Position numbers and translations under genes: made by a program
Assembly: GCA_012964335.1 (NCBI GenBank)
Contig: DTUF01000022.1
Span: 30,195 to 94,194, forward strand
Reading direction: 5' to 3'
DNA from: Candidatus Poseidoniales archaeon
Lineage (GTDB): Archaea > Thermoplasmatota > Poseidoniia > Poseidoniales > Thalassarchaeaceae
Length of the DNA stretch: 64,000 nucleotides
In this document: positions 391 to 29,545 of the stretch, in pieces
How positions within the stretch are numbered: position 1 is the first letter of the stretch
Layout: each line of letters opens with the position of its first letter
Notes under the pieces: model-generated
The model's input: only the letters and a program-made list of their open reading frames with translations
What the model was told of the DNA's origin: nothing
The model's database searches: none

Positions 391-491
391 GTTACCACTA
401 CAACATTGCCGGGAGCGCCAAGTCTTTGAGCCTGTTCATTAAGTGATTTTGAATAACAATCAATTCAAGCATAAAGTTCACAACTAAATTG

Positions 492-1364
492 ATGTCGCGC
501 CAACACATGAGTGCTGATGACCGGCTTATACGCGTAGGGCATTCGCCCGATCCAGATGATGCATTTATGTTCCACGCATTAACTACTGGATTAGTTAAAA
601 CTCCAGGATTTAGATTTGAGCATGTCTTACTGGATATTGAGACATTGAATGAGAAAGCCATTGCAGAAGAATATGAAGTCAGTGCAGTTAGTATTCACGC
701 TTTTCCTGAAATATCCAATAAATATTCATTGATGAATTGTGGGGCAAGCATGGGTGAAGGATATGGCCCAATGCTTGTTAGTTCTAAAGAGATGACTTTA
801 GAAGAAGCTTGTTCAAAACCTATTGCAATCCCAGGGCAGAAGACCTCGGCACATTTGGCTTTGAAAATGGCATGCGGTAATGTTGAGACAGTTATTGTCC
901 CCTTTGACGAAATTATGCCTAGAATTCAAAGTGGTGAATTTAATAGTGGGGTCATTATTCACGAAGGGCAGTTAACTTGGAAATCTCATGGCATGAACCT
1001 TCTGTTAGATTTAGGTGTATGGTGGAATGAGAGAAACAACGGGCTTCCTCTTCCATTGGGTGGGAACGTTGTCAGGAAAAATCTTGGAAAGGAATTGTGT
1101 GAAGATATTACTGAGTGGGTTAAACAAAGTATTGAGATTGCTATATCAAACCCTGATGAAGCGTTGAAATTTGCAAGGCAATGGGGCAGGGGAATAGATG
1201 AAGAAACGAATTCTAAATTTGTACAAATGTATGTAAATTCTAGAACTATTGATTTTGGTGATGATGGTAGGGAGAGCATTATAAAATTCCTAACAGAAGG
1301 TCAAGAGATCGGAATGATTAACGATGATTTTGACCCAAGTTCAATAGAATTTATTGGTGCATAA
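492..1364 (+). CDS. mqnD: 1,4-dihydroxy-6-naphthoate synthase-like protein, MqnA/MqnD (VitK2 biosynthesis) family
   Basis: N-terminal VGHSPDPDDAFMFHAL matches the MqnD signature (SPCPNDTF[IM]FYAL). Length about 290 aa. ORF track start is TTG at 489; ATG at 492. Other mqn genes lie 3-6 kb downstream. Confidence 0.6.
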   Translation: MSRQHMSADDRLIRVGHSPDPDDAFMFHALTTGLVKTPGFRFEHVLLDIETLNEKAIAEEYEVSAVSIHAFPEISNKYSLMNCGASMGEGYGPMLVSSKEMTLEEACSKPIAIPGQKTSAHLALKMACGNVETVIVPFDEIMPRIQSGEFNSGVIIHEGQLTWKSHGMNLLLDLGVWWNERNNGLPLPLGGNVVRKNLGKELCEDITEWVKQSIEIAISNPDEALKFARQWGRGIDEETNSKFVQMYVNSRTIDFGDDGRESIIKFLTEGQEIGMINDDFDPSSIEFIGA

Positions 1365-1674
1365 GTTTGTCAGAACAAGATGAGAATCATACTTTGTTAT
1401 AACAAGGAATATGATTCAGTTTACCCAGCACCGCCAACCAGTAAAACTTCAATGAATTAGCAGTCTGGTTGACCTTCAAGAATACTCAATAGTAAGTCAT
1501 GAGGCAGAAGACGCAATAGGTGCAATTGCACATAATATTGGGGTAAATATTAATCTAAATGTTGAGTGTATTATTGCTTCTTAATCGTGTGAAGTAGAGT
1601 TTGATTTATCAGAATGGACCGTAATTGATTTAGTAGAATATAGGTTAAAATGATACATTCAAGGAGATAATTCT

Positions 1675-4107
1675 TTGGTTGAATCCGTATTCGCAGGACC
1701 GATGAGAAAACATGCGGCCACTTTCTTTCCACTTTTCATCACTGTCGTGATACTGACATCCTCACTTCCAGTAATATCTGAGGTTAATGCCTCAACCGAA
1801 GAAAATTATCCATATAGTGGTAGTATTGTAAATCCTTATTCTTTATCTGGGTCTTCAGAAATCACTTATTCCACTGATGGTACTTTAATTGCAGCAGCTT
1901 TTAATTCAGATGTTGTAATCATTAATGCTCAATACCGGACTTTCATCACAGATATTAGTATTGGCAATAAGATTTTGTCTCTTTCATTTTCTGAAGATGA
2001 TTCTTCACTTCTAGTAGGACTAGAAAGTCCATTCATGAGTACATTAGCTATGGCTATCTATGACACTTCAACTTGGCAGAGAATAGGAGTAAATGAGGAT
2101 GGTAAAGCAGTAAGCGACATCAGTATTTTACCAGGTCAAGAAATTTTTGCTTCAGCGAATGAAAACAATGGTGTGTCAGAATATTTTATCAATGATTCCA
2201 CGCATTCAATCTCAACTTTTGATGGAGAACATACTTCTGATGTAAGTTGTATGGACCATTCACCTAATGGTCAACAACTAGTAACTGGAGGTGAAGATGG
2301 GAATATATTTCTTTGGAATCGATCTTCAATGACAGTAGATATTCCTTGGCAGGTGGGTTTCAGTATCATAGATTGTTCAATTTCACCTGATGGGACCCAA
2401 CTGGCTTGGGTAACCAATTCTCTCCTTCAAGTTAGGACAGTTCCTGACGGTGAGTACATCACATCTCAGAACCTTGTTGGAACTGCAAGTCAATTAGAGT
2501 GGGCTGAAAATGGTGAAGAATTATGGGTATTAATTGAATCAACAACAAATAAATTAACTATTTTTGATGTTACAGATTATTCAATTATCACCTCATTTGA
2601 CTTAGGGCATAAAATTTCACGATTCGCTAAGTCGCCAATTGTCTCAGAGTTTGTTGTCACTACAAATACTCATTTGATTTCTGTCTTTAGGGAGGATGCT
2701 TGGGCTCCCTATTCAGGATTGGCTGGTGCAGATTTGGATGGTGATGGAACCCCAGATAGGTATGATGGCGATGACGACGGTGATGGCTTAGGGGATGATT
2801 TTGAATATTCATGTACAGAAGGTAGTGATTGCGATTTACACCCGCATCCAGATTATATTAGACAAGTCTCTATTAAAATTAACAACAATAAAATTACAAT
2901 TCAAGATACATATCAACTCAATTCTAGTATCAGCGCGCCAATAAGGGAATTAGCATCCTCAGCCGTTGCATCTGATGGATTAGTATCTCAAGGTGAAGCA
3001 ATTAAGATGGAGAAAATGTTGTGTAGCGGTACAAATGCCAACCAAATCAGTTTAGATTGGAACGAGGCACTAAAATTTGATAATTCAGCAATAATTGGAA
3101 CAACTGTTCGATGTGATGCAAAATTAGGATTGATTGGCACTGTCCAACATGATTCTAGTACGCGTATTCAACTCCGTTGGTTTATTGAAATTACTATGGC
3201 AAATAACATTCCTAGACCATTTAACATGTCGTTTAATCCTTCGGTTTCACCCCCATTACATACTATTTCTCAAATTGCTCCAACTTCACCTCTAACATTG
3301 ACTTTAATTCACCAAGGAGATACTGTCTATTACCAAACACCTATTCACACCAGCAGCCCACAATTGTCTATAATAATATTAGCGAAACCAGCTGCAGACC
3401 CCTCTATTATTGACATCTTATTATCTTGGATTGAGAGCAATTATTTACTACTATTAGGTGTAATTATTACGATAGGATTGGGAGTTATATTAGTGGTGCG
3501 AAGAAAGAACAGTATGTTATTCGAGATAGAAGAAGATGAAGAAAATTTATCCATAACAACATCAAGAAGAAGGTCATCTACCAAGAATATGCCATCAGAT
3601 AATATCTCTTCAACAGGGCGCCCTCAACCAATACAACCACCCGAAGGAGTGACTAGCCACCGACCACAACCTGCGCATCGTCCTTCTAATGAACCAATGA
3701 TTCGTCGTGTTAAGAGAGCCCCTGGTTCAGTTTCCCAGTCAGGTAAAGCACCAGAAGGAGAAGAATGGGATTACTCAGAACACGGTGCATACTGGGATAA
3801 GGATGACCCTGATGCTACAGACCCTTATGGGGAGGCCCAAGAGTTCCATAAAGAAGAATTGGCAATTCTAGATATTGCTCAACAAGTTGCTGCAGAAACT
3901 ACAGATGAAGAAATTGAAATTGAATCCCCAATTCAAACCGTAATTGAACCCGATATTGAGGGGTCGGAATCCGACATGGATGCAGCTCTATCGATAATTA
4001 CTAAACCCAAGAAAGTTAAATCAAAAAAATCAACTGATAAATCTGAAGAAGTGGATGGGAAGCCCAAGAAGAAACGTCGAAAAGTAAAACGGCGGAAATC
4101 AAGTTAA
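1675..4107 (+). CDS. cell-surface protein: signal peptide, WD40/beta-propeller-like region, thrombospondin-type-3-like Ca-binding Asp repeats, single TM helix, long charged cytoplasmic tail
   Basis: Signal-peptide-like N-terminus (MRKHAATFFPLFITVVILTSSLPVISEVNA) if started at ATG 1702. TTG at 1675 is 8 nt after an AGGAGA motif, so the start is ambiguous. TGGEDGNIFLWN WD-like blade. DLDGDGTPDRYDGDDDGDGLGDDFEY Asp-rich Ca-binding repeats. TM helix LLLLGVIITIGLGVILVV about 300 aa before the end. C-terminal K/R/E-rich tail ending KPKKKRRKVKRRKSS. Confidence 0.6.
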   Translation: MVESVFAGPMRKHAATFFPLFITVVILTSSLPVISEVNASTEENYPYSGSIVNPYSLSGSSEITYSTDGTLIAAAFNSDVVIINAQYRTFITDISIGNKILSLSFSEDDSSLLVGLESPFMSTLAMAIYDTSTWQRIGVNEDGKAVSDISILPGQEIFASANENNGVSEYFINDSTHSISTFDGEHTSDVSCMDHSPNGQQLVTGGEDGNIFLWNRSSMTVDIPWQVGFSIIDCSISPDGTQLAWVTNSLLQVRTVPDGEYITSQNLVGTASQLEWAENGEELWVLIESTTNKLTIFDVTDYSIITSFDLGHKISRFAKSPIVSEFVVTTNTHLISVFREDAWAPYSGLAGADLDGDGTPDRYDGDDDGDGLGDDFEYSCTEGSDCDLHPHPDYIRQVSIKINNNKITIQDTYQLNSSISAPIRELASSAVASDGLVSQGEAIKMEKMLCSGTNANQISLDWNEALKFDNSAIIGTTVRCDAKLGLIGTVQHDSSTRIQLRWFIEITMANNIPRPFNMSFNPSVSPPLHTISQIAPTSPLTLTLIHQGDTVYYQTPIHTSSPQLSIIILAKPAADPSIIDILLSWIESNYLLLLGVIITIGLGVILVVRRKNSMLFEIEEDEENLSITTSRRRSSTKNMPSDNISSTGRPQPIQPPEGVTSHRPQPAHRPSNEPMIRRVKRAPGSVSQSGKAPEGEEWDYSEHGAYWDKDDPDATDPYGEAQEFHKEELAILDIAQQVAAETTDEEIEIESPIQTVIEPDIEGSESDMDAALSIITKPKKVKSKKSTDKSEEVDGKPKKKRRKVKRRKSS

Positions 4108-4898
4108 ACTTCTAACCACTCGATATCATTTTTTAGGCCACATACTTCTGTAAGAAAGAATTCAAGGCCCCTTACTGAATCTGGTGATAGAATATTTGTT
4201 ACTTCATTGAAGTATCCATTAATTCTCTCTACTGAAAATCCACTTCTAGCCGCAGTGTTCCGAATTACTTCATCTTTTATTTGAGGATTGTCTCTAAAAT
4301 TTATTGCATTAGACAATAAGTCAGTATGAGCTTGTTTTAATTTATCAACGGGTGCTGAAGAAGGAGCAGCAAACACTCCAAAAACCATTGGTAATCCAGT
4401 GAGTTTTTGCCATTCTTCCCCCAGATCCATTTTGACTAATTCAGGACATCTTTGTGCTTCATCAAGTGCTCTGTCTCCAATCAATAATGCTGCATCACAC
4501 TTTGATAGCATTTCTTTTAAATCAGGACCCATATCTACTGTTTTAGGGTCTAATCCCATCTCAGCCAGAATGTATAGTACTAATATTCGAGAAGTAGATG
4601 AATCGGTTGGTAGTGCTATATCTCTGATTTTATCAAGTTCTCTATTACTGAATAACAGCACACTACCAACTGCTCCTTCAGATGCGATTCCAATGTCAGG
4701 AAGTAAAATTAATTCAGAGGAATTAGCAGCGTAATCAGCTGCTGGGATGGGGGCCACGAGACAATCTTTTCGAAGTAGGTGACCCGTTAACCAAGCAGGA
4801 GGGGCTGGTAGTATTGACCATTCTTGAGATAAATTATGAAATAACGGATCACAATTAACAAAAGAAACTCTGCCTAAAATTTCTGACCAATTAACCAC
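4104..4898 (-). CDS. mqnA: chorismate dehydratase MqnA (futalosine-pathway menaquinone biosynthesis)
   Basis: N-terminal LGRVSFVNCDPLFHNL matches the MqnA motif (R[IV]G.I.YLN.LPL[YF]). Length about 264 aa. Start codon is GTG (cac at 4896-4898); no in-frame ATG near the conserved N-terminus. Confidence 0.6.
   Translation of the reverse strand: MVNWSEILGRVSFVNCDPLFHNLSQEWSILPAPPAWLTGHLLRKDCLVAPIPAADYAANSSELILLPDIGIASEGAVGSVLLFSNRELDKIRDIALPTDSSTSRILVLYILAEMGLDPKTVDMGPDLKEMLSKCDAALLIGDRALDEAQRCPELVKMDLGEEWQKLTGLPMVFGVFAAPSSAPVDKLKQAHTDLLSNAINFRDNPQIKDEVIRNTAARSGFSVERINGYFNEVTNILSPDSVRGLEFFLTEVCGLKNDIEWLEV
4129..4134 (+). terminator. oligo-T tract downstream of the surface-protein gene stop (archaeal intrinsic-terminator-like)
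   Basis: tttttt starts 22 nt after the TAA stop at 4105-4107. It lies inside the 3' end of the convergent mqnA gene. The convergent genes' stop codons overlap (taa 4105-4107 plus strand, tta 4104-4106 minus strand). Confidence 0.2.
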
Positions 4899-4912
4899 TC
4901 TTAAACACCTCT

Positions 4913-6142
4913 CTAACTGGGTATCATTGGCAATCCGTTATTGTCAGGACGGTTATTTCTGCGAAAATTTCTGAATTGCGTATAATCGGTATTTCTCTCA
5001 ACGGCAACACCTCCAACAGACTCAATCAGATTTGCTAAATCAACGTCTATATCATTGAGTGGAGTTGTTGAACCTGCGAGATGCATGATTTCTTCATGGC
5101 TAACCGTCCCATCAATGTCATCTGCTCCGCTAAGTAAAGCAAGCGCCGAAATCTTGTCCCCGATGTTCATTCGATATGCCTTGATATGAGGGATATTATC
5201 CAACATTATCCGAGCCAATGATATCATTCTTAAAATTTCATTACCAGTTGCTAATTGTGCTTCTGGTAATCTAGATGAATCCGGTAGATATGGATAGGGG
5301 ACAAAACATTGGAATCCAGAAGTTTCATCTTGAAGAATTCTTAACTTATCAAAGTGAATCATTCTTTGTAGAGTAGACTCAACTGTCCCAAATAACATAG
5401 TACAGTTTGTTGGAATTTCAAGTTCATGAGCTATTTTATGAATGTCTAAATATTCTTCTGAGGATTCTTTCCCTTTACAAATTAAATCTCTTATCTCATC
5501 GACAAGGATTTCTGCACCACCCCCTGGGATAGAGTTTAGCCCAGAGTTTTTTAATCTTGAAATTGTTTCAGTAATAGATAGGTTAGAGATTTGTGCAAGA
5601 TGTTTTATTTCCACCGCAGTCAAAGCCTTGAGACTTATATTTGGATATTGAATCTTGAAAGCTTTGAACAGTCCTTGATAATATTCAATATCCCAGTCAG
5701 GGTGTAATCCACCAACAGTATGTACTTCAGTGATAAATTGGGAATAAGGTTCAATTCTATCTAAATATTCTTGAACTGATAATGAATAAGCATCATCTGC
5801 TTTAATTCCTCTTCTGAAAGCACAAAATTTACAAGCCAAGACACAAACATTTGTTTGATTTACATGCAAATTTCTGTTATAGAAAATAGAAGTGCCATAT
5901 CTTGATTGTTTCAAATAATGAGCGACATTGGATAGAGTAGGTAGATCACACTTATTGTGTAAAATTACCCCTTCTTCACAAGAAATTCGTTCGCCTGATA
6001 TTGCTTTATTCAGAATGATTCTAACATCGTCATTAATGGACTCAGGCAACGATGGAATAGTGCTTGTAACTTTATCACCAGTTGAGGGGATCGATGAGAC
6101 ACTCGCGGTGTCTCGCCATTGGAAAGGTGACTCAAGATGCAT
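4913..6142 (-). CDS. radical SAM menaquinone biosynthesis enzyme, MqnE (aminofutalosine synthase) / MqnC family
   Basis: CVLACKFCAF is the CxxxCxFCAF radical-SAM motif typical of MqnC/MqnE. It lies adjacent to mqnA on the same strand. ORF-track start 6163 is TTG; first ATG at 6142 (MHLESPF...). MqnC and MqnE cannot be separated by eye. Confidence 0.6.
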   Translation of the reverse strand: MHLESPFQWRDTASVSSIPSTGDKVTSTIPSLPESINDDVRIILNKAISGERISCEEGVILHNKCDLPTLSNVAHYLKQSRYGTSIFYNRNLHVNQTNVCVLACKFCAFRRGIKADDAYSLSVQEYLDRIEPYSQFITEVHTVGGLHPDWDIEYYQGLFKAFKIQYPNISLKALTAVEIKHLAQISNLSITETISRLKNSGLNSIPGGGAEILVDEIRDLICKGKESSEEYLDIHKIAHELEIPTNCTMLFGTVESTLQRMIHFDKLRILQDETSGFQCFVPYPYLPDSSRLPEAQLATGNEILRMISLARIMLDNIPHIKAYRMNIGDKISALALLSGADDIDGTVSHEEIMHLAGSTTPLNDIDVDLANLIESVGGVAVERNTDYTQFRNFRRNNRPDNNGLPMIPS

Positions 6143-6196
6143 TTCTCTCAGTTGAGCGCACAAGTCACCTGCTTTAATGGCTATCAGCGACTTTGT

Positions 6197-17492: not shown

Positions 17493-18515
17493 TCAGTCAG
17501 ATATGGTTAGATTCTTCCAGTATTCTTCTGGTACTTCTTGAGACAATCTGAGAGCACCCTCTGCACCTAACATCACTGGGTCCTCTACAATGTGGACTGT
17601 GATGCCGCCGAGGTCTGCGAGTCTTTCTTCAATGGATGCTCCTAAACCTCTAATGCCAGACCCACCACCTGCTAGGATTATGTTTTGTCGGAATCCATCA
17701 TGATATTCAGGATTAGAATCAGCAATAAGGGATTTCAAATTTTCAATTATTGGATTAATAATCGTTTCACAAGCAGATGAAATACAGTCTGTAATATCTA
17801 ATGACATTGCTTTCCCCTCAATTGAGAAGTCAACAACAACTGGATCCTTAGGTGGGGAAGTACTAGTGAATGAAAATTGTTCTTTCCAGCGTCTAGCCAT
17901 ATCTTTGGTAATCTGTGCGCCGACATATTTCCGTTGAATCGCTTCAATTAGATTTAGGTCTATCACATCTCCAGCCTGTTTAATATGTAATTGATCTTCA
18001 GGGCGGGGTATAGTTCCATACACTCTGCATATATCTGTTGTACCAGCCCCAATATCTACTACCATCGTGTGGTCCAACATGTCAAGAGCATAAGCAACTG
18101 CAAATGGTTCAGAAATAATCATGCAAGCGTTGACTGTACCAGCTGCAGCATCAAAAATTGCTGTTTTGTCAACGTGACTGGCTTCCGCTGGTGCTCCTAT
18201 CACTGCAACTACTCTGTCATAATCTTCCGGGTCTGCGAGATTCATCATATGGTTAATGAAGTGAGCGATGAATTTCTTATCTTCTGGAGTATCCTTGATT
18301 ACCCCATGTTCAAGAGGTCGATAAAGGTTCAATGCTAAACGATTTTTCAGTGCTTCTTCTCCAAATAAAACATCTCGTCGCAGGAAATTTTTTGCAATGG
18401 AATCCTTTGGTGTTCCTATCACCGTTAGAACCTGTTCTTTGTGTTTATCATTCGAAACCATGACCGACCTAAACGTACCTAAGTCAACACCGATGTAGAG
18501 AGTATCTTTCGCCAT
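17493..18515 (-). CDS. actin-fold ATPase, MreB/ParM/Ta0583-like
   Basis: ASKHA motifs: phosphate-1 IGVDLGTFRS, phosphate-2 VVDIGAGTTDICRV, adenosine IILAGGGSGIRGL, C-terminal VEDPVMLGAEGA. These closely parallel MreB (VVDIGGGTTEVAV / VLTGGGALLRNL / AEDPLTCVARGG). About 340 aa. ORF-track start 18524 is GTG; ATG at 18515 (MAKDTLYIGVDLGT). Confidence 0.65.
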   Translation of the reverse strand: MAKDTLYIGVDLGTFRSVMVSNDKHKEQVLTVIGTPKDSIAKNFLRRDVLFGEEALKNRLALNLYRPLEHGVIKDTPEDKKFIAHFINHMMNLADPEDYDRVVAVIGAPAEASHVDKTAIFDAAAGTVNACMIISEPFAVAYALDMLDHTMVVDIGAGTTDICRVYGTIPRPEDQLHIKQAGDVIDLNLIEAIQRKYVGAQITKDMARRWKEQFSFTSTSPPKDPVVVDFSIEGKAMSLDITDCISSACETIINPIIENLKSLIADSNPEYHDGFRQNIILAGGGSGIRGLGASIEERLADLGGITVHIVEDPVMLGAEGALRLSQEVPEEYWKNLTISD

Positions 18516-18530
18516 TGTATCCACCGTTAT

Positions 18531-20761: not shown

Positions 20762-20859
20762 TGTTCTGCGCACTCTATCGCCCCTAATCAACACGGCGGC
20801 TTGATAGAGTTCTATACACAATAGCAATTGACTTCATGGTGGTCCCTTTCCGACTAATC

Positions 20860-21675
20860 ATGGAAAGCCCTGTCATCATCAAGTTAGGTGGTGGCCTCAT
20901 CACCCAAAAAGATCAATTATGCACTCCAAAAATCGATATTATTCGAAATCTGGCAAAGTCAATACATCATCTAGTTAAGATGAATAGACGTGTAATCATC
21001 GTTCATGGCGCTGGGAGTTTTGGCCACCTAAAGGCAAAATCCTGGAAGCTTCATGAAGGTAGAACCGATGAAGGTCTCCCTATTGAAGGTGAATTTAAAA
21101 CCCAGATTGAAGCAATTAATTCGGTCAGGCAAGATATGAAAAATCTAAATCAATTAGTTTCAAACGAATTTAATAAATTGGGAATGTCAACAATTTCCCA
21201 TTCACCTCATACTTGGGCATTTGAAACCGGTGCAAACTTTGTTGGAGATTTAAACCGGTTCAATATGGTAGAACACTCAGTTCACATTACACATGGTGAT
21301 GTTGTTGATTGTAAAGGGACAACAGAATTCGGTATATTGAGCGGAGATGATATTTGCTATAGACTAGCAGTAGAACTTGATGCATCACACATGATATTTG
21401 CAATGGGGGGGGCATCTGGAGTAATGACATTACCACCTTCAAATCCAGAATCTAAACTAATACCAGTGTGGACGCCAAACAAACAATTTCAGGGTCAACA
21501 TCAATCAGACATTGATGTGACTGGTGGAATCTATCTAAAACTCAGTGTTGCAGAGAAAATTAGTCAACATGTACCAATGGTTTGGATAATTGATGGAGAG
21601 TGCCCTGAACGTATTGGAGAAGTAGTTCAAAATGGGGAAACATATGGCACTAGAATAATTCCCGAATCTCCGTAG
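20860..21675 (+). CDS. isopentenyl phosphate kinase (amino-acid-kinase fold)
   Basis: IIKLGGGLITQKD, HGAGSFGH, ILSGDDICYRLAVEL and DVTGGIYLKL align to the M. jannaschii IPK motifs (ILKLGGS, HGGGAFGH, ISGDDIVPYLA, DVTGGM). The alternative upstream ATG at 20836 adds 8 aa. Confidence 0.7.
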   Translation: MESPVIIKLGGGLITQKDQLCTPKIDIIRNLAKSIHHLVKMNRRVIIVHGAGSFGHLKAKSWKLHEGRTDEGLPIEGEFKTQIEAINSVRQDMKNLNQLVSNEFNKLGMSTISHSPHTWAFETGANFVGDLNRFNMVEHSVHITHGDVVDCKGTTEFGILSGDDICYRLAVELDASHMIFAMGGASGVMTLPPSNPESKLIPVWTPNKQFQGQHQSDIDVTGGIYLKLSVAEKISQHVPMVWIIDGECPERIGEVVQNGETYGTRIIPESP

Positions 21676-23468: not shown

Positions 23469-25676
23469 TCAATCAGAGTAGTAAGTTTCAGTAGGTATTT
23501 CTGGTTTCAGACCCTTTCGTTGGCGAATTTCACCTACTACTTTCTCAAGTAATGACCTTGGCAATTCTTCAAACCCACAATTTTCAGTATTCCACACAGC
23601 CCTGCCTTGACTAGCGGCACGAATATCATTTGAAAATCCAAAAGTTTCAGCGACTGGAACTTTTCCGATAACTGTTGTGATTTCACCATCAGATGGCATA
23701 TCTTCAATTTCACCACGGCGCTGTGTGATTTCTCTTGTGACACCACCTAACCAATCATTTGGTACAGACACATGCATCTTTTGGATTGGCTCCATCAGTG
23801 CAGTGTTAGCTCTAACTAGAGCACCTTTGATGGCATTTCTCATTGCTGGAATTGTTTGAGCAGGTCCTCGGTGGATTGCATCTTCGTGAAGTTTAGCGTC
23901 TTTGAGTTTAACCATAACGCTCATGAGTGGCTCTTCAGCGATTGGCCCTTTCTTACACACTTCATTGAACGCCTCAATTAGCAATTCCTTAGTTTCGTGA
24001 AGATATTGGATACCTTTCGTGTCATTAACTAATACATTAGTTCCGTTGATTGCATAGGTCTTACGCATCAAATCTTTATCCATGCCGTATTCAGCAAATT
24101 TTCTACCCATTTCCTTAGCGTCATTTGGTCGAATAGTTCCAGAACCAATTTCGCCTTGACGAAGTGCATCTACTACCTCTTCTGGGAGTTGTTCAACTTC
24201 AATGTAGAATCGGTTGTGACGGTTTGGGGATTTTCCTTCAAACGCTCGGCCATGATTATTTCCGGAAGTCGTTTCGCGATAAACAACAATTGGTTCTGAG
24301 ACTGAGACTTTGATTCCTTGTTCTACCTCAATTCTATAAGTTGTAATCTCAAGATGAAGTTCACCCATTCCTGCAAGTAGTGCTTCTCCTGTTTCTGCAT
24401 TAGTGGTAACTTGCAATGAAGCATCTGCTTTTGCAAGGGAACGTAATGCATCAATGAATTTCGGCAAATCTTTCATTGATTTAGGTTCAACTGCCACAGT
24501 TACTACTGGTTCTGAATAATGTCTGATTGCCTCAAATGGAATGATGTCTTTATCACGTGCAACTGTTACCCCAGCCGCGGCTGAACGTATACCAGTAATT
24601 GCTGCAATATTTCCTGCTACAATCTTTGGAATAGAGATACGGTCACTTCCAACCATCATACTGACTTGTTGAACACGTTCGGCTTTACTTCCTCCAATAG
24701 CCCACAAACTCTCACCATGATTAATGGTCCCTGAGTATAGACGTCCTACAGCAACTTCGCCAGCGTGGGGGTCCATCCAAATCTTAGTAATCATGAGTGC
24801 AAGTGGTCCTTCTGGGTCACAATTAATCATTGCTTGACCCAATTCAGATTCAGAATCACCATTCCAGATATTAGGAATACGGTATGGTTGTGCAACAACG
24901 GGGCTAGGTAGTTGAGAAACCGCCATATCTAACAGCACCTCGTGTACAGGTGCCCTTTTTGCTAATTCTTTTTGTTCTTCATTATTACAATAATCAAAGA
25001 TATCTTTGAAGGAAATACCTGATTTTTGCATATACGGGACTGTAATCCCCCAATTATGGTAAGCAGAACCGAATGCAACGGTGCCATCTGCAACACTAAC
25101 TTGCCAAGATTTCTTGTATTCATCAGGTGCGAATTGACGAATTAATTTGTTCACCTTGGTAATCTGTTCCATGAATCGTTCTTGCATGTCTTCAGGTGTA
25201 ACTTGCAATTCGTTAATGAGTCGGTCTACTTTGTTTATGAACAGTACTGGTTTCACCTTTTCTTTTAGTGCTTGACGCACAACAGTTTCAGTTTGTGGCA
25301 TTGCACCCTCAACTGCGCACGTTAAGATAAAACAGCCGTCAACTGCGCGCATTGCTCTTGTAACGTCACCACCGAAGTCAACGTGACCAGGGGTATCAAT
25401 CAAATTGATGAGATAATCTGTGCCTTCAATTTCGTGAACCATTGAAGCTGATGCAGCATTAATGGTTATTCCTCTAGCAGCTTCCTGTTCATCGAAATCA
25501 AGAACCCTACTTTTCCCTGCTAATTCCTCACTCATCATGCCAGCACCAGCAATCAAATTATCAGAAAGAGTGGTTTTACCATGGTCAATATGTGCAGCAA
25601 TACAGAGGTTTCGAATTCGATCTCTATCGTGCATCACTTCTGTTGCTTTTGCGATGTTGTCTTCCTTTCGTCCCAT
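23469..25676 (-). CDS. fusA: translation elongation factor 2 (aEF-2)
   Basis: G-domain AHIDHGKTTLSDNL, DTPGHVDF. 735 aa. Diphthamide-site region DAIHRGPAQTIP. Downstream of S12/S7 as in the canonical str operon. Confidence 0.95.
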   Translation of the reverse strand: MGRKEDNIAKATEVMHDRDRIRNLCIAAHIDHGKTTLSDNLIAGAGMMSEELAGKSRVLDFDEQEAARGITINAASASMVHEIEGTDYLINLIDTPGHVDFGGDVTRAMRAVDGCFILTCAVEGAMPQTETVVRQALKEKVKPVLFINKVDRLINELQVTPEDMQERFMEQITKVNKLIRQFAPDEYKKSWQVSVADGTVAFGSAYHNWGITVPYMQKSGISFKDIFDYCNNEEQKELAKRAPVHEVLLDMAVSQLPSPVVAQPYRIPNIWNGDSESELGQAMINCDPEGPLALMITKIWMDPHAGEVAVGRLYSGTINHGESLWAIGGSKAERVQQVSMMVGSDRISIPKIVAGNIAAITGIRSAAAGVTVARDKDIIPFEAIRHYSEPVVTVAVEPKSMKDLPKFIDALRSLAKADASLQVTTNAETGEALLAGMGELHLEITTYRIEVEQGIKVSVSEPIVVYRETTSGNNHGRAFEGKSPNRHNRFYIEVEQLPEEVVDALRQGEIGSGTIRPNDAKEMGRKFAEYGMDKDLMRKTYAINGTNVLVNDTKGIQYLHETKELLIEAFNEVCKKGPIAEEPLMSVMVKLKDAKLHEDAIHRGPAQTIPAMRNAIKGALVRANTALMEPIQKMHVSVPNDWLGGVTREITQRRGEIEDMPSDGEITTVIGKVPVAETFGFSNDIRAASQGRAVWNTENCGFEELPRSLLEKVVGEIRQRKGLKPEIPTETYYSD

Positions 25677-25680
25677 CAGT

Positions 25681-25697
25681 CTTCACCTTCGGTGAAG
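25681..25697 (-). promoter_or_regulatory. perfect 7-bp hairpin (CTTCACC-TTC-GGTGAAG) ending 4 nt upstream of the EF-2 start codon
   Basis: Read directly. On the mRNA strand the sequence is GGCTTCACCGAAGGTGAAGACTG-ATG. The stem sequesters the SD-like GGTGA. Confidence 0.3.
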
Positions 25698-25785
25698 CCG
25701 CCGACCTAACATCGGTTCATAAAGGCCACCACCCCAGTTACTTGGTGGATGTGACAACCATTCCATCAGTTATCGTTCCGTTGAC

Positions 25786-26943
25786 TCAAGAAGTTAGTGG
25801 AGAAGAGGGTTGCATCATTTCATCTAAAAGGATCTGGAATTCAGAATTTATTCTAAGGATATTCTCTTTTGTTTGTACTATTTGGTCAACAATTATACGT
25901 CTAGCATTTGAACTTGATTTACGTAATTGTTCACGCTTTTCATCTAGATATCTCAAAGTGTCTCGCATCGCAGCAATACATTCTTTACTTCGTAATTCAA
26001 ACATATTCATTTCAATCTCGTCGTGATTCGGTTGAGATTCGATAGCAATTTTCGAAAATGACGTCCTCATTTTTGCTGTTTCAATTGATGATTTCGGAGT
26101 TTTATTTAGATTTGAATTAAATTTAACTAGAGACCAAGCCTTAATCCACCACTTTGATGGATCCCATTGCCACCATCTAATTCCATTGCGATAATCCGCT
26201 TGAAAAGCGTGATGAAAGTTATGGTACCCTTCTCCAAATGTGAAAAAAGCAAGCCAAAGAGAATCCTTACTACTGTTGCTCGTAGTATAGGATTGTTTTC
26301 CCCATACATGTGCTGCGGAATTTATCAAGAATGTTCCGTGGTGCACAAAAACTGTTCGAACTAAGCCACCCCAAATAAATCCACCAATAGCAGTTGGGAT
26401 TCCACCAATAGCATAACCTACTATTGCTGGGGCCACCATACCAAACAAGAAACCGATAGAAAAAATGAAGCGATGTTGCAATCTGATTACCCAATCTTTC
26501 TGCAAATCCCGAACATTAGAATAGTCTACTTCCCCATCTTGTTCATCTATTAATATCCAAAAGAAATGACTCCACCAAAAACCTCTCGTAGCATTATATG
26601 GGTCGCCTTCTTGGTCAGTTTCTTTATGGTGGCGGCGGTGATCACTGCACCATTCCAAAATTGAATTTTGAAAAGCACCTGCACCAAATAATGCATAAAA
26701 TATCCTTAGGGGCAATACTGTTTGATGACTCCTGTGAGAAAATAGTCTGTGGTAACCAACAGTAATAGATAGTCCACAAGCGAAATACCAAACAAAAAAT
26801 ATGCTAAATTCAACCCAAGTAATGCCATATGTTATGCCATGCCAAATTGAACCTATCAAAGCCAAAACTGGAGTGAGAATAAGAAAAATTACGTTTATCC
26901 AATTCAACTTTAATGGTTTTTTATTGTCGATTGAATTGGACAC
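25786..26943 (-). CDS. membrane fatty-acid (acyl-CoA/acyl-lipid) delta-9-type desaturase with about 100-aa C-terminal coiled-coil extension
   Basis: Three histidine boxes in canonical order and spacing: HRLFSH, HRRHH, HNFHH. Four TM helices. Apparent GTG start (cac 26941-26943); no in-frame ATG at the N-terminus. Confidence 0.75.
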   Translation of the reverse strand: MSNSIDNKKPLKLNWINVIFLILTPVLALIGSIWHGITYGITWVEFSIFFVWYFACGLSITVGYHRLFSHRSHQTVLPLRIFYALFGAGAFQNSILEWCSDHRRHHKETDQEGDPYNATRGFWWSHFFWILIDEQDGEVDYSNVRDLQKDWVIRLQHRFIFSIGFLFGMVAPAIVGYAIGGIPTAIGGFIWGGLVRTVFVHHGTFLINSAAHVWGKQSYTTSNSSKDSLWLAFFTFGEGYHNFHHAFQADYRNGIRWWQWDPSKWWIKAWSLVKFNSNLNKTPKSSIETAKMRTSFSKIAIESQPNHDEIEMNMFELRSKECIAAMRDTLRYLDEKREQLRKSSSNARRIIVDQIVQTKENILRINSEFQILLDEMMQPSSPLTS

Positions 26944-27047
26944 AATATCACAACACCATTGTTAGTAGTTCATTTGGTATTCTATTAGCACTATTAACTT
27001 CAAGGACCTTAGTTCCTACAACGGAGCAGTTTCATGAATTGAAATTA

Positions 27048-27692
27048 TCACCGTGCAGATGCAGCGATTCTTTCAACTTCTTCTCTCTTACCTATTGCGT
27101 AGGATGTGACATCCCCATTCGCAGCTTTTGAGATTTCAGTAACAATACCCTGGGTCAGTGTTCGAGTACTCTTACGTGTTGCTTGAGTAGAACCTGTTGC
27201 TAGGTGTCGAATGGCGACATCAATTCGGCGCATTGGCGCACTGTCAACTGCTTTTGGCTGACTAACTGCTCCAAATTTAATTCGTGTAATCTCTTCCATT
27301 GGTGCTGAATTTGCTAATGCGTCTACAAACACTTGTAGTGGATTGGTATCATCTCTCTCTGCAATACGGTCCAAAGCTGCCTCAAATGCTTTTGTAGCAG
27401 TAATCTTCTTGCCAGTATATTTTCCAGTTCTCATCAATCCGTTGATAAATCTCTCAACAATGGATAACTTGCTCTTTCCAAACCAAGCGTTAGCGTGGCG
27501 TCCTCCTGTGTGAGGTACACCTACCGTTTTGAGATTGATGTAAGGTGCGATACCTGGGTCCTCACAAGATACAGTAGTAGCATCCCATTTGTTGAATACA
27601 AGAGTCCCAATACCTGCGATTGGAGTTTCATTGATTACCTTCTCTTCAGCAGGTTCTTCTTCTTCGACTTCTACTTCTGCTTCATCACTCAT
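27048..27692 (-). CDS. rps7: 30S ribosomal protein S7 (uS7)
   Basis: 214 aa. Acidic N-terminal extension then conserved uS7 core (KFGAVSQPKAVDSAPMRRIDVAIRH). Lies immediately downstream of S12. Confidence 0.9.
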   Translation of the reverse strand: MSDEAEVEVEEEEPAEEKVINETPIAGIGTLVFNKWDATTVSCEDPGIAPYINLKTVGVPHTGGRHANAWFGKSKLSIVERFINGLMRTGKYTGKKITATKAFEAALDRIAERDDTNPLQVFVDALANSAPMEEITRIKFGAVSQPKAVDSAPMRRIDVAIRHLATGSTQATRKSTRTLTQGIVTEISKAANGDVTSYAIGKREEVERIAASAR

Positions 27693-27701
27693 TATTTCAC
27701 C

Positions 27702-28130
27702 TCAGCGAATTGGCTTCTCTTTACGGCCTCTAACCATCTCATTTAGTGAGACACCATTGACCTTGATTACCTTGAACCTAACTCCAGGGATATCTCCGTA
27801 TGAACGACCCATGCGCCCACCGATTCCCTCTACCATGACTTCATCGTGTTCATCAATGAAATTGATTGCTCCGTCACCAGGTGCGAAAGCAGTCAACTTA
27901 TTTCCAGTACGGATTAAACTGATTTTTACAGCCTTACGGATACCTGAGTTCGGTTGTTTGGCTTCAATTCCAACCTTCTCAATCACAATACCCTTGGCTT
28001 GTGCTGAACCACCTAGGGGATCAGACTTTTGTTTGAGCTTAAGAACCCGCTTTTTGTATCCACGATCCTTCCAGCGAAACCGCTGTCTATCTCGCTTCAT
28101 TTTCGCACCAGCAAAAAGTCCTCTACCCAT
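27702..28130 (-). CDS. rps12: 30S ribosomal protein S12 (uS12)
   Basis: 142 aa. [30 protein letters not shown] and the decoding-loop region are conserved. ATG start. Confidence 0.9.
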
Positions 28131-28279
28131 GGTTACACCTTGAAGCAGGCCGCCGTCCTACCTCGCATATATGAGTCCATCGGCATTGCATGCATAAGCA
28201 TAGCCGCAGGGCAACGATTGTAACGTGCTTCAAATATACGCCCCCAACCTTCAAGCGATGTATCTAAGTCGCCATCACA

Positions 28280-29545
28280 ATGGCATTCAGAGACCATCTC
28301 GATGGAGCAGTCAAGATTGAATCAATAAACCCAATTAATGAGATGAGATTACTAATTGAGTCCAACCCAAACGATGTAATAATGTTCACCAGTGTCGATG
28401 GCGCAGTAGGCCATTCAGCAGCAGCAAATGTATGTCTTAGGGATAATATGGTAAATCAATTTGGCATTCAACCTGCGGAGTTACTCAACACTCTAGAATG
28501 GGCAATGAATAACCGTTCAGAACCTGTAAAGTATCAAGGGGATGCACCTGTATTAGAGAATTCCATTGAACCTGTAGACCTAGGAAAATTGCCAATTCCA
28601 CATCACTACCCGCAAGACCGAGGCCGTTACATGTCAGCCAGTATTATCATAGCCGAACACGCTGGATTACGCAATGTATCCTTTCACAGACAATTTGTAA
28701 GAGATAAAAATCACTTAGTTGCTCGCTTGGTTCCTCGTCACCTCAGAACCATGGTTGATGAAGCAAGAGCACAGGGTGAAAATGTAAACATTGCAATTGT
28801 TAACGGGGCTGACCCTTGCCTTCTTTTAGCTGCTGCAATGTCCTTTAACGAACCAATTGATGAGCTCACAGTAGCGTCCTCTTTGTATCAGAAATTCTAC
28901 GGCAATGCAATGCAAGTTATCACTTTAGAAAATGGTGTAACAGTACCAGCAGATGCTGAGTATGCAATGTGTGCAACTATTACTAGCGAAGATGATGATG
29001 AAGGGCCGTACATTGACATTACTGGGACCATTGATGATGTGCGCAAACAACCTGTCATTGAAGTTCACTCTATCCACCATCGGAACAATCCTATATTTCA
29101 TGCAATTTTACCCGCCTTAGGCGAACACCATGCACTAATGGGTCTCCCCCGCGCACCGACTATTTTCTCTAGTGTTTCAAAAGTGTGTGATTGCCGAGAT
29201 GTTGTAATGACATCTGGTGGCTCCGGTTGGCTTGCTGCAGTGGTTCAGATTGTACCACAATCTCCAGATGATGCTAAAGCAGCAATAATGGCTGCTTTTA
29301 GTGGACACCCATCTATGAAATCAGTAACAATTGTTGATACAGATATTAATCCAACAGACCCTGTTAGGGTTGAGTGGGCATTAATGACACGATGGCAACC
29401 AGATAAGGACACGGTAATTCTGAGTAATCAGCGAGGCAGTAGCCTTGACCCTACCAGAACTGAGGATGGATTGACTTCAAAAATTGGTTATGATGCTACC
29501 ATCCCATTTGGTAGTGATAAGAAACCATATACTTCTGTACTATAG
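28280..29545 (+). CDS. UbiD-family (prenylated-FMN-dependent) decarboxylase, probable menaquinone/quinone ring decarboxylase
   Basis: MAFRDHLDG N-terminus (UbiD proteins start MA[FY]RDLR). Central IRNVSFHRQFV region. 421 aa. The futalosine pathway uses a UbiD-like MqnL. Confidence 0.6.
   Translation: MAFRDHLDGAVKIESINPINEMRLLIESNPNDVIMFTSVDGAVGHSAAANVCLRDNMVNQFGIQPAELLNTLEWAMNNRSEPVKYQGDAPVLENSIEPVDLGKLPIPHHYPQDRGRYMSASIIIAEHAGLRNVSFHRQFVRDKNHLVARLVPRHLRTMVDEARAQGENVNIAIVNGADPCLLLAAAMSFNEPIDELTVASSLYQKFYGNAMQVITLENGVTVPADAEYAMCATITSEDDDEGPYIDITGTIDDVRKQPVIEVHSIHHRNNPIFHAILPALGEHHALMGLPRAPTIFSSVSKVCDCRDVVMTSGGSGWLAAVVQIVPQSPDDAKAAIMAAFSGHPSMKSVTIVDTDINPTDPVRVEWALMTRWQPDKDTVILSNQRGSSLDPTRTEDGLTSKIGYDATIPFGSDKKPYTSVL

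Follow-up and report, generated by a model that had tools for sequence, protein, structure and literature searches.

We analyzed a 64,000-nucleotide stretch of contig DTUF01000022.1 from a Candidatus Poseidoniales archaeon (the window) and focused on a gene for a membrane acyl desaturase that lies between the genes for ribosomal protein S7 and elongation factor 2. The open reading frame (ORF) list and the sequence together reveal a row of four genes, all co-oriented on the minus strand, which encode S12, S7, the desaturase, and archaeal elongation factor 2 (aEF-2, here EF-2). The S12 and S7 genes are separated by 9 nucleotides (nt). An earlier reading made from the letters of this DNA (the sequence-only reading) had proposed a co-oriented desaturase between rps7 and the EF-2 gene with spacers of about 105 to 110 nt on each side, and this layout was borne out, with spacers of 104 and 109 nt. 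The row is composed as follows.

27702..28130, minus strand: uS12 gene, 142 amino acids (aa); NF003254, 232.8 bits (cut-off, 196); PF00164
27048..27692, minus strand: uS7 gene, 214 aa, with an N-terminal acidic extension; NF003106, 231.8 bits (cut-off, 225); PF00177
26944..27047, minus strand: S7-desaturase spacer, 104 nt; from the ORF list and sequence
25786..26943, minus strand: SCD-type membrane acyl desaturase gene, 385 aa, GTG start; PF00487, 63.9 bits
25677..25785, minus strand: desaturase-EF-2 spacer, 109 nt; from the ORF list and sequence
23469..25676, minus strand: aEF-2 gene, 735 aa; TIGR00490, 1068 bits (cut-off, 738)

The host group is Marine Group II (MGII, Poseidoniales). The best 120 protein matches were 52-93% identical and, where named, came from Poseidoniales, Poseidoniaceae, or "Euryarchaeota archaeon" metagenome-assembled genomes (MAGs). 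The rest of the window contains archaeal housekeeping genes, including those for exosome subunits, proteasome alpha, SBDS, diphthamide synthase, TiaS, SRP54, and futalosine-pathway enzymes, in agreement with the archaeal host that had been assumed from the sequence alone.

The desaturase gene begins with GTG in the window (26941-26943) and with TTG in loci L001-L003, whose desaturases are 78% identical to that of the window. An ATG is present at the same codon position in L090-L094 and, a few exceptions aside, in the other archaeal copies examined. Since the homologues begin at the equivalent codon (ATG or TTG) and share the N-terminus, the GTG start given in the sequence-only reading was accepted. 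It is a matter of speculation whether the GTG and TTG starts act as a brake on translation from an abundant transcript. Residues 1-26 of the neighboring S7 protein (27615-27692) form a highly acidic extension (MSDEAEVEVEEEEPAEEK...), which the S7 profiles do not cover and which varies in length and sequence among relatives.

Family, fold, and C-terminal tail of the desaturase

The desaturase matched the PF00487 family (FA_desaturase) with 63.9 bits over residues 51-267, above the cut-off of 29.7. The only NCBIfam match was to NF049918, "DesA family fatty acid desaturase" (E = 2e-14, residues 58-354), with a score of 53.4 bits against a cut-off of 400, which places the protein outside that equivalog. 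When all PDB sequences were searched with phmmer, only mouse and human SCD1 were returned (E = 6e-43 [4YMK] and 8e-42, residues 11-287). Public MAG annotations already label the protein "acyl-CoA desaturase" or "stearoyl-CoA desaturase." Alignment with SCD1 identified four metal-ligand motifs, as follows.

26734..26751, minus strand: His box 1, HRLFSH, residues 65-70; H65 and H70 invariant; pairs with HRLWSH of SCD1
26626..26640, minus strand: His box 2, HRRHH, residues 102-106; H102, H105, and H106 invariant; pairs with HRAHH of SCD1
26308..26322, minus strand: NSAAH, residues 208-212, the extra Asn/His ligand motif; N208 and H212 invariant; NSAAH in SCD1
26209..26223, minus strand: His box 3, HNFHH, residues 241-245; H241, H244, and H245 invariant; HNYHH in SCD1

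The SCD-type motif set is complete, comprising HX4H, HX2HH, HX2HH, and the NX3H motif that is found on the fourth transmembrane helix in SCD1. Invariance of the ligands was judged in an alignment of 51 Poseidoniales homologues, and an AlphaFold2 (AF2) model was built on the same alignment. The loss of His-box residues on alignment, which the sequence-only reading had named as grounds for withdrawing the assignment, was checked, and all ligands were invariant in the 51 homologues. The AF2 model has a mean predicted local distance difference test (pLDDT) score of 82.7, with low confidence around His box 3, and contains two pairs of long helices placed like the four transmembrane helices of SCD1. 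A Foldseek search of the PDB with this model gave significant matches to SCD1 only (4YMK, 6WF2, and 4ZYO; E ~1e-12, probability 1.00), with target-normalized template modeling scores (TM-scores) of 0.72-0.75. The earlier assignment to a three-His-box membrane desaturase of the SCD/Δ9 class is therefore upheld by the PF00487 match, the SCD1 alignment, and the invariant ligands.

Pairwise ratios of nonsynonymous to synonymous substitution (dN/dS) against close relatives were 0.05-0.09 for the desaturase, 0.05-0.09 for S7, and 0.02-0.04 for EF-2. The desaturase ratios indicate that the gene is intact and under strong purifying selection, and together with the invariant ligands they led us to reject a pseudogene or decaying insert. 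By homology, the desaturase is predicted to be a functional O2-dependent di-iron membrane enzyme of the SCD1/Δ9 "first desaturase" type. In such an enzyme, four transmembrane helices and a cytosolic cap would hold nine histidines and one asparagine around the di-iron center.

The protein continues beyond the region aligned to SCD1 in a C-terminal tail, which had been described from the sequence alone as a charged coiled coil not found in standard desaturases.

25789..26091, minus strand: C-terminal tail, residues 285-385, three predicted long helices; AF2 and profile search

In the AF2 model, the tail helices span residues 284-306, 309-342, and 345-377 with pLDDT values of ~87-97, and in the Foldseek search residues 284-377 had no meaningful structural match. 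Among 56 extracted bacterial homologues, almost all were 360-400 aa long, the same overall length as the archaeal desaturase, and tblastn matches to bacteria often extended to query residues 370-385. A profile of the archaeal tail matched the bacterial tails colinearly (best E = 1.4e-5 in a small database). The tail is absent from mammalian SCD1, but its supposed uniqueness was a mistake, since nearly all bacterial homologues carry a weakly homologous one. These comparisons identify the three-helix tail, as judged from alignments and models, as a trait of a bacterial-type desaturase subfamily. It may serve in oligomerization or in the docking of a redox partner.

Origin of the gene and the variable S7/EF-2 junction

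Trees of the desaturase were built by neighbor-joining with one copy per MAG, and the bacterial sister group or donor is not resolved in them. The archaeal desaturases formed one clade in 100% of 200 bootstraps, nested among bacterial homologues that are 37-47% identical over nearly the full length. This answers the question of horizontal or vertical descent posed by the sequence-only reading, and the single acquisition from bacteria by the ancestor of Poseidoniales is shown at the level of the sequences compared; the gene has been under strong purifying selection since then. A fatty-acyl desaturase remains unusual for archaea in general, as had been stated, but within Poseidoniales it is common.

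Roughly every second archaeal desaturase locus is located away from the str cluster. Archaeal group 1 (L020 and L023-L031; 100% support) never occurs in that cluster, and group 2 holds all of the str-located copies. Relocated copies were found inside str-located clades: L004 and L015 grouped with L116, L113, and L018 (98% bootstrap), and L010 grouped with L103 and L011 (96% bootstrap). This nesting indicates that residence between S7 and EF-2 is old in group 2 and that the gene later moved in some lineages.

To describe the junction, 80 S7 loci (L090-L169) were retrieved with an S7 profile; 6 were too short and 74 were informative. The S7 gene was followed directly by EF-2 in 30 of the informative loci, by the desaturase in 18, and by other co-oriented genes in 26. 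The supposedly near-universal order S12-S7-EF-2 therefore does not hold in Poseidoniales. The other cargo included genes for a 280-aa GGACT/AIG2-like protein, a 129-aa protein without a Pfam match, a 327-aa secreted acidic EF-hand protein, and a 113-aa membrane protein.

L122:5682-6515, L134:1940-2329, L144:5708-6691, and L168:654-995: example S7/EF-2 cargo genes

In a published genus O1 MAG, S7 is followed directly by EF-2, and the part of the accompanying metatranscriptome supplement that was searched contains no acyl desaturase. One lineage (L022, L107, and L115) carries an inversion of the block formed by S12, S7, and the adjacent UbiD-family gene, with the breakpoint exactly at the S7/desaturase junction, such that UbiD, the desaturase, and EF-2 are co-oriented and S12-S7 are on the opposite strand. 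These data show the gap between S7 and EF-2 to be permissive and variable in what it holds.

Conserved promoter-like blocks precede S12, the desaturase, and EF-2.

28167..28174, minus strand: S12 TATA-like box TCATATAT, 36 nt before the ATG; conserved across Poseidoniales loci, function putative
28150..28159, minus strand: S12 AGGACGGCGG element, between the TATA box and the predicted transcription start; conserved, matches AGGWCGGCGG
26982..26997, minus strand: two TATA-like motifs in tandem, TTAATAG at 26991-26997 and CTAATAG at 26982-26988, candidate promoter of the desaturase; distance to the GTG, 38-47 nt
25714..25725, minus strand: EF-2 promoter-like box CCTTTATGAACC, with the TATA core at 25716-25723, 39 nt 5' of the ATG; sequence and distance conserved in all contexts
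25698..25707, minus strand: EF-2 AGGTCGGCGG element, downstream of the TATA box; position equivalent to that of the S12 promoter element
25683..25688, minus strand: Shine-Dalgarno-like AGGTGA, 6 nt before the EF-2 ATG; conserved across loci

The EF-2 gene keeps a conserved TATA/GGTCGGCGG promoter-like block resembling that of S12, whatever lies upstream. In the window this block reads CCTTTATGAACC-N6-AGGTCGGCGG-N9-AGGTGA-N6-ATG, and the S12 block has the same architecture, with TCATATAT, AGGACGGCGG, a Shine-Dalgarno (SD) sequence, and the ATG in that order. Strong conservation of the 55 nt 5' of EF-2 is seen whether the preceding gene is the desaturase, S7 itself, or other cargo; compared with L091, 1 of ~57 positions of the block differs despite a synonymous divergence of ~0.8-1.0. 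Exact matches to AGGWCGGCGG occur only twice in the 64-kb window, at the S12 and EF-2 promoter sites. The TATA boxes lie 36 nt (S12) and 39 nt (EF-2) from the ATG, as would be expected of an archaeal promoter whose leader is ~15 nt long. The unusual shared architecture of a TATA box, a GC-rich AGG(T/A)CGGCGG element, and an SD sequence (28150-28174 and 25698-25725) is conserved across the order, and the GC-rich element might be a regulatory site for translation genes. Together with the variable S7/EF-2 slot, it is of modest interest for archaeal genome organization.

The block around the tandem motifs upstream of the desaturase (ccttgaagttaatagNgctaata) is conserved in the window, L090-L094, and L003 despite a synonymous divergence of 0.6-2.4. 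In 20 of 45 distinct archaeal desaturase upstream regions, the end of a TCAATAG-like motif ([TC][CT]AA[AT]A[GA]) lies 21-22 nt 5' of the ATG, and this spacing would be that of the TATA box of a leaderless mRNA. The motif is independent of the neighboring gene (S7, UbiD, or an unrelated gene) and accompanies the desaturase to non-str loci. With the same spacing it was found in none of 310 upstream regions of S7, S12, EF-2, UbiD, and IDI-GGPPS (the last two being the flanking genes described below) and in 1 of 55 bacterial homologues. The TATA regions of the desaturase and EF-2 look alike in the clade of the window, and a derivation of the desaturase promoter by duplication of the EF-2 promoter was therefore considered. 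It was rejected because the likeness involves TATA-like bases only and does not extend to the other clade.

Terminator searches were carried out on both window spacers. Neither contained a run of at least 5 T residues, the oligo-T signal that had been proposed as a check, and neither folded better than shuffled sequence (z = +0.54 for the S7-desaturase spacer and -0.20 for the desaturase-EF-2 spacer). An AT-rich TTTCA...TGAAA hairpin just 3' of the S7 stop was absent from the minimum-free-energy fold. A scan of the window for sigma-70 promoters and intrinsic terminators, whose consensus is bacterial and not relevant to archaea, gave fewer matches than shuffled sequence, and a terminator-like match at 27047-27068 was discarded as being at chance level. 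In lineages with direct S7-EF-2 adjacency (L120, L162, L161, and relatives), a 6- to 7-bp hairpin followed by UUUU is present downstream of the S7 stop, just 5' of the EF-2 TATA box. Its stems differ by lineage (CACGGAA/UUCCGUG, CGACGA/UCGUCG, and CGAAGA/UCUUCG); of three lineages tested, two gave z scores of -3.2 and -3.4. This hairpin, which the window lacks, resembles a terminator or a 3'-end stabilizer of the S12-S7 transcript.

Taken together, the data favor a reading to which we assign a probability of roughly 0.6: the gene encodes a Δ9 desaturase of acyl chains (probably of acyl-CoA) that was acquired long ago and lies where two transcription units leave a permissive gap. In the lineage of the window and in many others, the desaturase would occupy the space between two separately promoted units, S12-S7 and EF-2. 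The conserved motifs suggest that its transcription starts mainly from a TATA-type promoter of its own and that EF-2 has a separate promoter resembling that of S12. The sequence-only reading had taken the placement to suggest cotranscription with ribosomal genes, a suggestion that is weakly based given the conserved promoter-like blocks before both the desaturase and EF-2. It had also named an independent promoter and terminator as what would isolate the gene transcriptionally; a promoter-like motif was found, and a terminator was not.

Several points weigh against this reading. The S7 loci were the best matches to a query from desaturase-bearing loci, related populations included, so that the occupancy fractions are biased. 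The desaturase motif was defined after the alignments had been viewed, and its counts are descriptive and should not be read as a test. In the clade of the window the motif lies at 38-47 nt rather than 21-22 nt, where the leaderless geometry does not apply, and the promoter function of all of the blocks is a prediction from conservation and geometry only. No terminator-like signal is present between S7 and the desaturase or between the desaturase and EF-2 in the window. The oligo-T test had little power, because T-runs of at least 5 are rare (0-16%) downstream of all three genes (S7, desaturase, and EF-2), including the convergent EF-2 3' ends that served as a positive control. The co-orientation of the four genes, their short spacers, and a desaturase-EF-2 adjacency that outlived an inversion fit a shared transcript equally. 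The Δ9 regiospecificity and the CoA head group are probable but predicted features of the enzyme.

The alternative for transcription is that the desaturase is a true operon member on a polycistronic S12-S7-desaturase(-EF-2) mRNA, so that lipid desaturation would be tied to growth rate and ribosome synthesis; the weak GTG and TTG starts in the window clade would then turn translation down. The genes are adjacent and co-oriented, with spacers of 104 and 109 nt, and neither window spacer holds a terminator-like T-run or significant hairpin; with no visible terminator, transcription of S12-S7 could run on into the desaturase, and that of the desaturase into EF-2. The arrangement is also kept over a long distance (EF-2 identity down to ~80%), the desaturase-EF-2 pair survives the inversion in L022, L107, and L115, and non-ATG starts are concentrated in the close clade of the window (GTG in the window, TTG in L001-L003). 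However, promoter-like blocks, putative in function, stand internally just 5' of the desaturase and EF-2, and the desaturase motif goes with the gene to non-str loci. Linkage to the cluster is not kept wherever the gene occurs: close relatives have direct S7-EF-2 adjacency or unrelated cargo, and copies nested in str-located clades have relocated without being lost. The hairpin and UUUU between S7 and the EF-2 TATA box in direct-adjacency lineages also speak against a continuous transcript. We consider operon membership unlikely on balance.

Substrate, membrane lipids, and surroundings of the gene

By homology, a saturated acyl chain would enter a bent tunnel in the enzyme, and a first cis double bond would be inserted with O2, most likely at Δ9. 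The substrate is probably acyl-CoA derived from imported fatty acids. This substrate is favored because genes for acyl-CoA and lipid metabolism adjoin the desaturase in several independent non-str contexts. These neighbors are two enoyl-CoA hydratases and a 3-hydroxyacyl-CoA dehydrogenase (3HCDH) in L031 (2195-7946), an acyl-CoA dehydrogenase and a 3HCDH in L005 (9091-13146), an old yellow enzyme (OYE)-family reductase and an MMPL transporter in L020 (7173-10802), and a large GDSL lipase in L023 (8791-11538). The β-oxidation capacity described for MGII (PMC6336850, PMC9723583) fits such a use of fatty acids taken up from outside. Among the genes of the window, none for cytochrome b5 was seen.

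A more far-reaching proposal is that MGII make and desaturate fatty-acyl chains for a mixed archaeal/bacterial-type membrane of their own. The desaturase would then be a core membrane-homeostasis enzyme whose expression is partly coupled to growth by read-through from the S12-S7 promoter, its gene being lodged in many lineages between translation genes and mevalonate/isoprenoid genes. We find this rather improbable. If it were true, the gene would provide the first direct, cloneable handle on whether any archaeon crosses the "lipid divide."

A related explanation, which we hold to be quite improbable, is that the desaturase acts on the membrane lipids of the cell itself (ester-bound acyl chains in a membrane of mixed archaeal/bacterial type, alkyl chains, or isoprenoid chains) and not on catabolic acyl-CoA. 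Strong purifying selection maintains the gene throughout Poseidoniales, and its neighbors in the window include isoprenoid-lipid genes (for a UbiD-family decarboxylase, IDI-GGPPS, and an isopentenyl phosphate kinase [IPK]-like kinase). Some bacterial relatives of the subfamily are described as phospholipid desaturases, for example, DesA of Pseudomonas aeruginosa. Fatty-acid synthesis and PlsC-like genes have been hypothesized for MGII, which would lack glycerol-1-phosphate (G1P) dehydrogenase, in two papers (PMC6962369, PMC7852524, citing Villanueva et al. 2017), and such a gene set would suit this explanation. Against it, β-oxidation and acyl-CoA genes adjoin the desaturase at other loci, and the fold and ligand set match those of the acyl-CoA desaturase SCD1. 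We know of no SCD-type enzyme that acts on isoprenoid chains.

MGII (Poseidoniales) are among the most abundant archaea of the surface ocean, are uncultured, and have disputed membrane lipids. In the open-access literature on this group, the desaturase mentions that we found all concerned carotenoid or phytoene enzymes. The presence of an order-wide, monophyletic, selected SCD-type desaturase implies that unsaturated acyl chains matter to MGII cells. The enzyme is of more interest than its placement, as a short single gene that offers a testable handle on MGII lipid biology.

The genes that flank the four-gene row are as follows.

28280..29545, plus strand: UbiD-family decarboxylase, divergent from S12; PF01977, PF20696; TIGR00148, 294.6 bits
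21735..23423, plus strand: fusion of a type-1 isopentenyl diphosphate isomerase (Nudix) and a geranylgeranyl diphosphate synthase-like protein (IDI-GGPPS), convergent with EF-2; PF00293, PF00348; TIGR02150, 160.8 bits
20836..21675: amino-acid-kinase-family gene beyond the IDI-GGPPS fusion, IPK-like

The UbiD-family flank is syntenic in every Poseidoniales locus examined; this gene (28280-29545) could encode the decarboxylase of the archaeal mevalonate pathway. The IDI-GGPPS fusion includes an IdsA/GGPP_syn-like region, is a single ORF of 562 aa, and is kept in all related loci. The kinase gene at 20836-21675 may encode isopentenyl phosphate kinase. Isoprenoid-precursor genes (the kinase, IDI-GGPPS, and UbiD) thus bracket the small str cluster, and the neighborhood is syntenic across Poseidoniales.

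The order UbiD / S12-S7-desaturase-EF-2 / IDI-GGPPS recurs in more than 20 independent Poseidoniales assemblies (NCBI, ENA, JGI, and Logan), down to ~51% desaturase identity and on contigs that include some of 80-236 kb. It is found in L001-L003, L007-L009, L011, L012, L014, and L016-L019, as well as in 18 of the 80 metagenome loci retrieved with the S7 profile. Identities to the window are 97% for EF-2 and 90% for the desaturase in L090, 93% and 61% in L007, and 81% and 53% in L012, and desaturase divergence runs parallel to that of S7 and EF-2. An assembly or binning chimera joining bacterial and archaeal DNA at the desaturase has a negligible chance of being the explanation: the nearest non-archaeal relatives of the desaturase are bacterial and GC content dips to 37% over the gene versus 41-44% in the flanks, but identical junctions occur in the independent assemblies from four sources, the divergence of the desaturase tracks that of S7 and EF-2, and the remaining window is uniformly archaeal. 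A chimeric contig, which the sequence-only reading had raised as a way to overturn its own proposal, was therefore rejected on the recurrence of the arrangement. GC content is 37.4% in 26001-27000, compared with 41-44% in the flanks; given the long residence of the gene, this dip probably reflects membrane-protein composition and not recent transfer.

Elsewhere in the window, two VitK2_biosynth genes (futalosine-pathway MqnA/MqnD-like) adjoin a radical-SAM CofH/MqnC-like gene at 489-6163, which indicates menaquinone synthesis by the futalosine route. A protein of the MreB/actin family is encoded at 17493-18524 on the minus strand (PF06723, 99 bits); its matches to Salactin and Volactin were weaker. 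Neither the Rfam scan nor the tRNA scan gave a match in the window, which contains no rRNA.

Comparison with known systems

The archaeal str cluster has the order S12-S7-EF-2, which in Euryarchaeota is often followed by EF-1α and S10. The Poseidoniales version keeps this order and orientation, with S12 and S7 9 nt apart. It differs in comprising three genes flanked by lipid-precursor genes on opposite strands, in having a promoter-like block specific to EF-2, and in the variable occupancy of the S7/EF-2 junction.

The desaturase resembles mammalian SCD1 (4YMK, 6WF2, and 4ZYO) in its four metal-ligand motifs, its fold, and its sequence over residues 11-287. In contrast to SCD1, its host is an archaeon and identity is only ~29-30%; the archaeal enzyme carries ~100 extra C-terminal residues, forming three helices, and is without the mammalian N-terminal extension. 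With respect to NF049918, the DesA family, the profile match covers residues 58-354 and the score is so far below the cut-off that the archaeal desaturase is not a member. With a similar length (360-400 aa), a helical tail, and 37-47% identity, the protein resembles the bacterial membrane Δ9-type desaturases of Shewanella, Colwellia, Thalassotalea, Bdellovibrionota, Elusimicrobia, and Acidobacteriota, a class that we take to include Pseudomonas DesA and DesB. Unlike these, the archaeal sequences group in a separate clade (100% bootstrap support), and upstream they carry TATA-like motifs of archaeal type where bacterial promoters would otherwise stand. The desaturase is thus an uncharacterized addition to a known enzyme family in an unusual host.

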